From Oscillospiraceae bacterium (GTDB taxonomy: Bacteria; Bacillota; Clostridia; Oscillospirales; Ruminococcaceae), in NCBI GenBank assembly GCA_051882595.1, contig JBJESD010000005.1:2369-66368 (forward strand): a stretch of DNA of 64,000 nt, given 5' to 3'. Positions 6,443 to 59,200 of this stretch are shown here, piece by piece. The stretch's first letter is position 1. Every line of letters begins with the position of its first letter. Position numbers and translations under genes: made by a program. The notes below the pieces were generated by a model. That model worked only from the letters and a program-made list of their open reading frames with translations, ran no database searches and was not told the DNA's origin.

Positions 6443-6490
6443 TAAGTTCATTATATCATCACATCATCAGCGCTGAAATTATTCAGCGCT

Positions 6491-6618
6491 CAGACTGGCG
6501 ATAAACCGCCATCTGCGGTGTCAGCGCCGCTGCGACAGCCACAAAGGCTAGTCGCAGCGGCGCTTCCTAGCATCTGACGATTTCTCAACAGTCTGATATT
6601 TGACTTTTTCGACAAGCT
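6491..6618 (+). mobile_element. 128-bp TIR element, copy A (MITE-like), flanked by a duplicated terminator hairpin
   Basis: CAGACTGGCGATAAACC...CTTTTTCGACAAGCT. The flanking hairpins are CAGCGCTGAAATTATTCAGCGCT (6468-6490) and CAGTGCTGAAATGATTCAGCGCTG (6619-6642). Confidence 0.8.
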
Positions 6619-6715
6619 CAGTGCTGAAATGATTCAGCGCTGGGCTTGTCGTTTTCTCGACATACGCCAAAAAGCACATATTGCAAAAGAAAAAATTTAT
6701 TTCCTGTATTTGCGC

Positions 6716-15401: not shown

Positions 15402-15480
15402 AAATCGCGGCAAGCATAGCCGCCATTAATATGTACGCCTAATATATAATGATGCCCCACAGTTCACTGTGGGGCATCAC

Positions 15481-15860
15481 AGGCTGTCGATAAACCGCCA
15501 TCTGCGGCGTCAACCACATAACGGCAGGCACAGATAGGATGTCTGTGCAGTTACCCCAAAAGCCCGACACGACGTCGGGCAACAAAGGGCAACATGGCAC
15601 AAAGCCTAGCCGTTGAGCGCGTTTAGAGTAACACGAAGTGTTATTCGTGCATCTGACGGCTTCTCGCCAGCCTGATAATTTACTTTTTCGACAGGTTCTC
15701 CGCAAAAGCGGAGGTCGGAATGGCTAACGCCATCCCGAGTCGTCCCTCCTGCGCGCAGGTACTTGTCGGGACAGCGGTATTTTTTGCGAGGGAAACCCTC
15801 GCAAAAAATAGATTACAAATGCTCGCTGCGCGAGCATAAACTAAGTTTTTCGACAAGCTG
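15481..15860 (+). mobile_element. Composite, decayed copy B of the TIR element with nested insertions and two right ends
   Basis: The left end CAGGCTGTCGATAAACC is intact. There is a 69-bp insertion in the apical loop, a degenerate right end at about 15685-15697, and a second right end TTTTTCGACAAGCT at 15847-15860. Flanking hairpins lie at 15452-15479 and 15862-15895. Confidence 0.7.
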
Positions 15861-15924
15861 AATGGTGCCCCACAGTGAACTGTGGGGCACCATTGGTATT
15901 ATGGTTTTATCATGAAATTTTCAA

Positions 15925-35156: not shown

Positions 35157-35187
35157 TTAATAAAGCCGTTCCCATACAGGAACGGCT

Positions 35188-35315
35188 CAGACTGTCGATA
35201 AACCGCCATCTGCGGCGTCAACCACATAACGGCAGGCACAAAGCCTAGCCGTTATGCGGTTTCCTAGCATATGACGGCTTCTCGCCAGCCTGATAATTTA
35301 CTTTTTCGACAAGCT
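35188..35315 (+). mobile_element. 128-bp TIR element, copy C, flanked by a 25-bp duplicated terminator hairpin
   Basis: CAGACTGTCGATAAACC...CTTTTTCGACAAGCT. The flanks are AAGCCGTTCCCATACAGGAACGGCT (35163-35187) and AAGCCGTTCCCACACAGGAACGGCT (35316-35340), followed by TTTGTTT. Confidence 0.85.
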
Positions 35316-35439
35316 AAGCCGTTCCCACACAGGAACGGCTTTTGTTTCGCTATCGAAGATTGACTTTTATTGTCCGCGCTGATATAATATTTATGTGGGC
35401 TTGTAATACATTGCCCGTCATTATTGCGGAGGTACAGAT

Positions 35440-46281: not shown

Positions 46282-46616
46282 TAACTTGTAACAGAAGTTA
46301 TACTTTTTTACAAAATTTATTACCCCTGTCCGCAATAGTGGATGGGGGCTTTCTGTTGCCGCACATTTACCCCTTGACAAATCGTGCGAATAGGAGTAAA
46401 CTTTATCATAAGATGACTTATAGGAACCTCTAAAAACCTCCTTCACGGCTGATTTGCTATGACAGCCGCCATCTACTTCGTTGCAAAACCTTGAAATACA
46501 TCCAGTATTACTGCGGTTTGTGCGCCTCGTATCCGGCAACTGTCATGTACTCAAATCCGCTCGTGTCCCGGTTTTTAGAGAACCCCGACTATATTATACG
46601 AAAGTGAGGTCATATC

Positions 46617-58828: not shown

Positions 58829-58886
58829 TCAGCGTAAGGTCGTTATTGACAGCAAAGAAAAATCCCCCGACCAAGTTCGGTGGACC

Positions 58887-59013
58887 AGCTTGTCGAAAAA
58901 GTCAATAACAGGCTGGCGAGAAATCGTCAGATGCTAGGAAGCGCCACTACGACTAGCCTTTGTGGCTGTCGTAGCGGCGCTGACGCCGCAGATGGCGGTT
59001 TATCGACAGCCTG
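58887..59013 (-). mobile_element. TIR element copy D1 (inverted orientation)
   Basis: AGCTTGTCGAAAAAG...GGTTTATCGACAGCCTG, lying between hairpins 58862-58884 and 59014-59039. Confidence 0.85.
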
Positions 59014-59040
59014 AAATCCCCCGACCAAATTCGGGGGATC

Positions 59041-59168
59041 AGTTTGTCGAAAAAGTCAAATAACAGGCTGGCGAGAAATCGTCAGATGCTAGGAAGCGCC
59101 ACTACGACTAGCCTTTGTGGCTGTCGTAGCGGCGCTGACGCCGCAGATGGCGGTTTATCGACAGCCTG
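59041..59168 (-). mobile_element. TIR element copy D2 (inverted orientation), tandem to D1
   Basis: Nearly identical to D1 (AGTTTG versus AGCTTG, plus one extra A), lying between hairpins 59014-59039 and 59169-59196. Confidence 0.85.
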
Positions 59169-59200
59169 AAATCCCCCGAACCGAGTTCGGGGGATTATGT

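Follow-up and report, generated by a model that had tools for sequence, protein, structure and literature searches.

A 128-nt repeat that occurs in five copies (A, B, C, D1 and D2) within a 64,000-nt stretch of Oscillospiraceae bacterium contig JBJESD010000005.1 (the window) is a mobile element; its insertion is polymorphic within the species, and a whole terminator hairpin is duplicated around it. The interior of the element is one long imperfect hairpin that is kept by compensatory changes while the sequence of its central stem is free. The original prediction, which was made at copy A, had read the compensatory changes between copies as evidence for a conserved multi-helix fold of a structured RNA or of single-stranded DNA (ssDNA); the mobility of the element was missing from that interpretation. 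Judged by its PEPCK homologues, the source of the window lies near Huintestinicola / Ruminococcus sp. CAG:353. In general make-up, a core of 106 nt, from CAGRCTG to CAGYCTG, is followed by a 22-nt tail (..TTGACTTTTTCGACAAGCT), which is kept in the window copies and in the relatives L083, L091, L077 and L008 (L numbers denote loci outside the window). The element has stops in all frames and no open reading frame (ORF), and a 20-mer from its arm occurs five times in the window against an expectation of zero. The copies and the hairpins that flank them are as follows.

6467–6490, + strand: upstream hairpin of copy A, TCAGCGCTGAAATTATTCAGCGCT, with no T-tract after it; its downstream partner, TCAGTGCTGAAATGATTCAGCGCT, is 92% identical.
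6491–6618, + strand: copy A, made up of core (6491–6596) and tail (6597–6618).
6491–6596, + strand: core of copy A, a 106-nt long imperfect hairpin that folds, shows covariation and matches the covariance model at 117.9 bits; it comprises an outer helix, then an arm helix that contains a CATCTG/CATCTG internal loop, a variable central stem of 13 bp, and an apical 4-bp helix with an ACAAA loop.
6597–6618, + strand: tail of copy A, the right terminal inverted repeat TATTTGACTTTTTCGACAAGCT.
About 6618–6642, + strand: downstream hairpin of copy A, followed by a T-rich tract.
15448–15479, + strand: upstream hairpin of copy B, 32 nt, 88% identical to 15861–15892.
15480–15859, + strand: copy B, a composite that is expanded and partly degenerate.
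15480–15697, + strand: long form of copy B, whose central stem is degenerate in its 3′ half, with an extra apical domain and a tail at 15676–15697; it matches the covariance model weakly.
15698–15859, + strand: second unit in locus B, 162 nt with about five small hairpins and the same end tail, GTTTTTCGACAAGCT, just before the downstream hairpin.
15861–15892, + strand: downstream hairpin of copy B.
35163–35187, + strand: upstream hairpin of copy C, AAGCCGTTCCCATACAGGAACGGCT; the hairpin AAGCCGTTCCCAYACAGGAACGGCT is present twice at this locus.
35188–35315, + strand: copy C, with core at 35188–35293 and tail at 35294–35315.
35316–35340, + strand: downstream hairpin of copy C, then TTTTGTTT; a functional-looking terminator.
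58860–59196, − strand: tandem locus D, which reads hairpin (59196–59169), D1, hairpin (59040–59014), D2, hairpin (58886–58860) and T-tract.
58887–59013, − strand: copy D2, with core at 59013–58908 and tail at 58907–58887.
59041–59168, − strand: copy D1, with core at 59168–59063 and tail at 59062–59041.

Mobility is apparent from the flanks. At each of 12 loci (A, B, C and D in the window; L083, L087 and L091b; L199, L219 and L139; L224 and L239), the element, or at the last five a member of the superfamily described below, is flanked by two copies of a locus-specific terminator hairpin of 24–32 nt, and all junctions lie at hairpin bases. The two flanking copies are mostly 92–100% identical to each other (88% at locus B). 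The hairpin ATCCCCGGAACGYAAGTTCCGGGGAT occurs twice at the locus represented by L083 and L090, the 30-nt flanking hairpins of L087 are identical at 30/30 positions, and L091b has the same hairpin–element–hairpin architecture. In the older-looking copies L002, L006, L010 and L077, the duplication has been lost or was never there. An empty site was recovered for copy C: a contig of the same species (L012; ENA ERZ13405075) that encodes an identical CorC protein carries one hairpin and then the T-tract, with no element. At site A in L074, which comes from the same sample as L012, the element is likewise absent, and the terminator allele has diverged. Relatives of the D site were either not syntenic or lay on contigs that stop at the element, so that they yielded no further empty site, and searches with empty-site patterns for L199 and L219 found none. 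Because the element is a repeat, short-read contigs of the same species from Logan (L013, L014, L015 and L222) stop inside it or at its edge.

Insertion is also oriented. Read on the + strand of the element, the T-tract lies 3′ of the second hairpin copy in 12/12 duplicated loci (two-sided binomial p ~0.0005), and insertion therefore takes place between a hairpin and its T-tract, in one orientation. We considered a replication-strand cause for this bias and rejected it: copies A–C and the D copies lie on opposite strands while the sign of the GC skew stays constant in the window, so orientation tracks terminator polarity and not replication. A guide-like link between the variable central stem and the flanking hairpin was rejected as well, as copy C alone has a motif in common with its hairpin, AACGGC/GCCGTT, and this motif is family-wide. 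Two loci depart from simple direct duplication. At locus B and in L091 (~700–830), the loops of the two flanking hairpins are reverse complements of each other (TTCA versus TGAA), and the flanking hairpins of locus B and L091b show an arm-to-arm compensated stem difference (A–T versus G–C), whereas all other loci have direct copies; the reversed loops might hint at hairpin-capped intermediates. At copy A, part of the tail (CGACAAGC) pairs with GCTTGTCG just 3′ of the second hairpin (6610–6651), giving a 19-pair terminator-like stem that is followed by TTTTCTCG; the GCTTGTCG there resembles an inverted piece of another tail.

The ends of the element are shared with a wider superfamily, found by scanning viral contigs for the tail and the left end. 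Superfamily ends are imperfect terminal inverted repeats (CAGRCTGTCGAAAAA ... TTTTTCGACAAGCT; consensus 5′-CAGRCTGTCRAAAAAYC ... CTTTTTCGACAAGCT-3′): the left end is 5′-CAGRCTGTCGAWAAA, the right end is TTTTTCGACAAGCT-3′, and, reverse-complemented, the right end reads (G)AGCTTGTCGAAAAAG, giving about 13/17 matching positions. The members (L199, L219, L139, L184/L232, L224, L239, L233 and L240) are 150–450 nt long, lack ORFs and have unrelated interiors between the shared ends; the right end of the 128-nt element also bounds the unrelated elements in L199, L219, L139 and L184. In the viral contigs, superfamily elements are flanked by perfectly duplicated terminator hairpins of 24–31 nt. The 162-nt unit in locus B is probably another member, and its left end is unlike the left terminal repeat of the superfamily. 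L087 has a different right end and tail despite its perfect 30-bp duplication, which marks a recent move.

Relatives of the 128-nt element were gathered by exact-pattern scans of metagenome-assembled genomes (MAGs) and metagenome contigs. True copies were found in MAGs of Oscillospiraceae, Ruminococcus and Clostridia (L002, L005, L006, L008, L009 and L010) and in contigs from gut and other metagenomes (L075–L077, L080/81/88, L083/85/90, L087 and L091), so that copies span at least nine other genomes or metagenomes besides the window; L078 is a distant GC-rich relative. Two GC-rich metagenome matches that carry the 3′ arm motif, L089 and L084, were not counted, and L089 gave no significant fold (z = −1.4). 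A first metagenome scan with a gapped pattern returned 0 matches, scans of viral contigs with the arm sequences returned chance matches only, blastn against plasmid records and deposited phage genomes found no match to the element, and a literature search with arm and tail sequence strings met only unrelated primer sequences. The gene contexts of the copies are mutually unrelated and include ordinary chromosomal genes, with copies lying, for example, after genes for peptidase M23, EAL, CorC and DUF6171 proteins.

Several of these copies are rearranged or interrupted. At the place of the ACAAA loop, copy B (15528–15610) and L006 (4983–5209) have an additional apical domain, GTTRCCCC.AAGCCCG-hairpin-CGGGCAAYMAAGGGCAAC, and this type is a conserved long form, present in two different genomes. 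In L085 (5580–5670; the same locus as L083/L090), another small inverted-repeat element (GGGATACGCTGATTAAA...TTTAATCAGCGTTTCC) is nested at the CCTAG of the element, and CCTAG is apparently duplicated around it. A partial copy in L005 (4378–4437), in which the 5′ arm is fused to a short 3′ arm, adjoins a full copy, and a solo 5′ arm in the opposite orientation adjoins the full copy in L076 (300–370). The relative in L078 (2600–2880) is enclosed by a 35-nt perfect inverted repeat pair (CTAGTGTACTGCATCGTAATTAATGGYACTTTCAG) and is thus nested in a larger palindrome.

The fold of the core is carried by comparative data. We aligned 13 distinct copies on the + strand (alignment A4), 14 on the − strand (A5) and, in a third alignment (A7), added the family 2 sequences described below; controls were 500 shuffles, which ignore the kinship of the copies, and alignments in which pairing partners were slid by 1–3 columns. 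In the central and apical stem, 14–15 of 17–19 pairs are changed on both sides and 93–94% of cells are paired. Over the whole structure, double changes occur at 24/41 pairs in A5, with 95.8% of cells paired on the − strand; 0/500 shuffles attained the observed whole-structure values, and pairing fell to 25–50% with slid partners. The central-stem arms of copy A lie at 6524–6536 and 6551–6563, the stem variants of copies C and D are present, and the sequences and coordinates quoted in the original prediction are correct. Its principal observation, that this stem has unrelated sequence but retains pairing, extends to 13–17 distinct copies, with 0/500 shuffles equalling it. Nor do the stems fall into two unrelated subfamilies: at least ten unrelated sequences each keep their pairing.

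The smaller helices that had been proposed fared unevenly. The flip of the apical helix from AGCC/GGCT to AGGC/GCCT is present, and the helix covaries around a loop of constant size, but the ACAAA loop, called invariant from the window copies, reads AGTCA, ACTAA or AGAAA elsewhere. The outer helix occurs as CAGACTG/CAGTCTG and CAGGCTG/CAGCCTG, as had been described, and has double changes at 5/7 pairs, although that of copy C contains an A·C mismatch. By contrast, CGTCA/TGACG shows no double change as a helix, and the small CCGC-CATCT-GCGG hairpin is just 77% paired and is lost in L075, L076b, L078 and L091b. The multi-helix topology gave way to a single long hairpin in which the arms pair with each other: RNAalifold predicts one long irregular hairpin on either strand, with the 5′ arm (GATAAACCGCCA..TGC) paired to the 3′ arm (GCA..TGACGATTTCTC) across a symmetric CATCTG/CATCTG loop. 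Arm-to-arm compensations are seen in L091b (G–C to C–G and G–C to U–A), in L076b (C–G to G–C) and in L087 and L078 (A33:T75 to G:C). The multi-helix fold is the minimum-energy fold of the + strand of copies A and C under DNA parameters, and is thus a reasonable single-sequence reading that comparative data do not support. What stands of the earlier interpretation is that structure rather than sequence is selected, in that the central stem, the apical helix and the outer helix covary and the arm helix of family 2 is fully compensated. A scan of the whole window against Rfam gave 0 matches at the gathering threshold, and at the locus only chance matches to miRNA-like hairpins (E > 0.1) appeared at E ≤ 10.

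Covariation of this kind could in principle arise with no selected fold, through inverted transposase-binding repeats that co-evolve, together with homogenisation of palindrome arms by fold-back or template-switch repair. The left terminal repeat recurs inside the element, inverted, as the 3′ arm (..GATTTCTCGCCAGCCTG); the reversed arm (CAGGCTGGCGAGAAATCG) resembles the consensus of that repeat, CAGACTGTCGAAAAACC, and part of the arm covariation could therefore reflect co-evolving protein-binding repeats. G·T and A·C mismatches are both present, as expected for transient DNA-level states, and the flanking hairpins of locus B themselves show arm-compensated differences. Such co-evolution cannot, however, explain the hypervariable central stem, as at least 10 unrelated paired stems cannot be a co-evolving protein-binding site. 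In addition, the arms of family 2 are internal rather than terminal and yet fully complementary with other sequence, the apical helix covaries around a constant loop size, and the mismatches are clustered at fixed positions and strand-biased. We therefore regard an origin without a selected fold as improbable.

The data lean towards the − strand, antisense to the upstream gene, as the functional one. The original prediction had held that the strand could not be called from the window; this caution was reasonable, but in the wider sample 95.8% of the cells of the long hairpin are paired on the − strand, compared with 88.3% on the + strand. The consensus energy is −68.4 kcal/mol on the − strand and −53.0 kcal/mol on the + strand, and single sequences fold better on the − strand with RNA and DNA parameters alike (z-scores for copy A, −9.5 on the − strand and −5.8 on the + strand). 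Two fixed C·A mismatches in the + strand arm helix are U·G on the − strand and are C–G and U–A in other lineages. Central-stem mismatches on the + strand number 12 A·C to 5 G·T, a ratio that makes the strand call a lean rather than proof. On the − strand, the invariant loop 5′-CAGAUG-3′/3′-GUAGAC-5′ can, from its sequence, be drawn with tandem G·A pairs, which it may form.

Strand preference bears on the possibility that the conserved hairpin works as RNA, either as cargo of the element or exapted by the host, in a + strand 3′ untranslated region (UTR) or as a − strand antisense RNA. On the + strand, it could be a transcript stabiliser, a processing site or a portable terminator acting once transcription has passed the first hairpin. 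In every case the element points the same way as the upstream gene and its terminator; the first hairpin lacks a T-tract, so transcription should enter the element; and in many copies the core hairpin is followed by U-rich sequence. At L077 (4425–4600), a near-consensus σ70 promoter, TTGCAA-17-TATAGT, stops 7 nt before the first base of the element, which on the + strand would begin the downstream gene's 5′ UTR; for the RNA reading this is a promoter that reads into the + strand. The same core on two transposon chassis also fits a function as RNA, and the changes from U·G to C–G and to U–A, with the possible tandem G·A pairs on the − strand, are RNA-like, although DNA also tolerates G·T wobble and tandem G·A pairs. 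However, the strand that is predictably transcribed, the + strand, pairs less well (88%) than the − strand (96%), for which no promoter-like site was found at the window copies. The lack of an Rfam match and the mutually unrelated gene contexts likewise count against it, and on balance we consider an RNA role rather unlikely, though it deserves serious weight.

The second chassis is that of a divergent relative in the window, which we call family 2.

46421–46591, + strand: family 2 element, with core at 46454–46555; the core matches the covariance model at 30 bits (E = 1.6e-5).

The covariance model, built from the A5 alignment, gave three weaker matches, at this core (window 46454–46555), in L090 (3815–3923) and in L087 (11049–11152). 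All three keep the invariant loop motifs (5′ CATCTGC..CGT.GTC and 3′ CCTAGCATCTGA), the loop being of the CATCTG / CCTAGCAT type. Their arm and apical sequences differ from those of the 128-nt element and yet are complementary, with a fully compensated arm helix, and when these three sequences were added to the alignment (A7), 30/38 predicted pairs covaried. The family 2 element is about 170 nt long, is bounded by IS5-type terminal inverted repeats (TAGGAACCTCTAAAAACC...GGTTTTTAGAG) and has TA-like flanks with no hairpin duplication. Its terminal repeats (TAGGWAACCTCTAAAAACC) match the end of a complete IS5-family insertion sequence (IS) in an AT-rich viral contig (L094, 6330–7620; ends AGGGAACCTCTAAA), which encodes a 345-aa transposase (NF033581 at E = 2e-80). 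The recurrence of one core in two families that differ in their ends argues for a function of the fold itself.

We propose that the 128-nt element is a non-autonomous transposon of the MITE kind (miniature inverted-repeat transposable elements), which duplicates terminator hairpins, is moved by a transposase acting in trans and needs its fold in cis as folded DNA; we weigh this proposal evenly, for and against. The trans-supplied transposase would recognise the terminal repeats and a stem–loop or cruciform target and would join the element ends to opposite strands at both bases of the hairpin, after which gap repair would duplicate the hairpin. Propagation would require the fold in cis, where the folded single-stranded or cruciform DNA would imitate the hairpin that the element targets. 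A cis role as folded DNA is favoured because the element resembles what it inserts into, a hairpin and then a T-rich tract. For the enzyme, our best guess, offered tentatively and more doubtful than the proposal itself, is a DDE transposase of the IS1182/IS5-superfamily type, because IS1272 cuts both sides of terminator hairpins of 22–30 bp; a stagger of polarity opposite to that of IS1272 would yield duplication. The class is a guess because the hunt for an autonomous element, by inverted-end partners, by hairpin-repeat partners within 5 kb and by phmmer with the IS5 transposase, found no autonomous copy or transposase, the phmmer search giving nothing in the fetched loci.

Several observations weigh against this proposal. 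IS1272 deletes or replaces its hairpin, whereas here the hairpin is duplicated. A DDE enzyme working on a symmetric cruciform would not be expected to insert in strictly one orientation with respect to the terminator, a bias that could instead point to an RNA- or transcription-linked process. The presence of the same core within the ends, and with the insertion mode, of a second family argues that the role of the core is not tied to one transposase, and the different tail of L087, beside a perfect duplication, means that the element may be able to do without its right terminal repeat. The window, ~330 kb of related loci and the ~140 viral-contig loci from the end-motif scans yielded neither an autonomous copy nor a transposase, and the fully clean empty sites obtained number one.

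The original prediction had likened the fold to a recombination substrate of the attC type. One could accordingly suppose that the element is moved as ssDNA, like REPINs or IS200/IS605 elements, by an HUH enzyme (Y1, RAYT-type), or that it is an attC-like site for a tyrosine recombinase. REPINs and attC sites follow the same logic of an imperfect hairpin with strand bias, and the element has a long imperfect hairpin with inverted conserved arms and a free spacer, is intergenic and multicopy, and pairs in a strand-biased way; no autonomous IS that depends on terminal repeats was found. The likeness holds as logic only. The element has terminal inverted repeats and duplicates a whole hairpin on insertion, neither of which is a feature of HUH or tyrosine-recombinase insertion. 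GTAG and the R/L box motifs are absent, there is no integron or cassette context, and no Y1 or integrase gene lies next to the inspected copies, in a search that was not exhaustive. We consider movement by either kind of enzyme very improbable. A more speculative idea, which we think unlikely, is a transposition system that reads shape: hairpin elements would integrate at the base of a terminator hairpin that is extruded or exposed by transcription, the hairpin would be duplicated, the T-tract would set polarity, and the core would be a cis-acting folded DNA or RNA cofactor. Rather than a passive palindrome, the deeply conserved core with its symmetric CAGAUG/CAGAUG loop, which two families with different ends have in common, would then be, for instance, a module for structure-specific recruitment or guiding.

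Comparison with known systems places the element, as a MITE-like transposon, nearest to bacterial MITEs and IS1272, and its kind is apparently undescribed. With bacterial MITEs (Correia/NEMIS, RUP and ERIC) it has in common that it is small, non-coding, multicopy and intergenic, with terminal inverted repeats, target duplication, a long hairpin fold and polymorphic insertions, and that such elements are often co-transcribed with their neighbours. In the usual terms for MITEs, it lies below ~500 bp without coding capacity and has terminal inverted repeats and a target duplication with an empty site; an autonomous IS with the same ends was not found in the window and the loci searched. It differs from bacterial MITEs in that their target is a short sequence such as TA rather than a terminator stem–loop structure, and their duplication is 2–10 bp rather than a whole hairpin of variable length (24–32 bp). 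Unlike them, it is fixed in orientation to the terminator and has no known parent IS. A 2024 review of MITEs lists no comparable element (PMC10969869). IS1272, of the IS1182 family, targets terminator stem–loops of 22–30 bp without primary-sequence specificity, breaks both sides of the hairpin, and deletes or replaces it without duplication (PMC4923244; PMC5678879). The stem–loop or terminator target and the junctions at both sides of the hairpin are common to IS1272 and the element, and IS5, to which the IS1182 family is related, has the type of terminal repeat that bounds family 2. IS1272 inserts in both orientations, whereas one orientation is seen here, and the loci examined yielded neither a transposase of the IS1182 type nor a matching terminal repeat.

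Other systems share single aspects. REPINs and REP-BIMEs (RAYT) likewise have two inverted conserved arms in a hairpin of ~100 nt with a compensated stem, are intergenic, often lie near terminators and have no autonomous copy nearby; they differ in lacking a tailed terminal repeat, duplication of the target and a fixed hairpin as target. Among REPIN traits, there is no GTAG at the feet of the arms, and no Y1 gene occurs among the inspected flanking genes, a search that was not genome-wide. With attC sites the element shares structure over sequence, an imperfect palindrome, fixed mismatches that could mark one strand and a variable terminal stem; its conserved arms are far longer and its copies are dispersed at terminators. 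The attC boxes R″/L″...L′/R′ (RYYYAAC/GTTRRRY) are absent from the alignment, and no cassette array or integrase was seen. Cas1–Cas2 and casposons also integrate at both borders of a sequence of ~30 bp, often palindromic, and duplicate it, and the tandem locus D (hairpin–element–hairpin–element–hairpin) resembles their repeat–insert–repeat order, an analogy of geometry only. Here, the duplicated sequence is locus-specific, the inserted DNA is a defined element and there are no cas genes.

In practical terms, short-read assemblies break at the element, which could be of use as a strain marker. The finding extends the hairpin targeting known from IS1272, itself poorly understood, to a case with duplication and constrains the geometry of strand transfer at a stem–loop, and the covarying core that two element families carry is a candidate for a new cis-acting DNA or RNA structure. 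If confirmed, small mobile elements of gut Clostridia and their phages would use terminators as landing pads and copy them, and the 3′ ends of many genes would be rewired, in that transcripts would read through the first hairpin, gain a new structured 3′ UTR and meet terminators in tandem.

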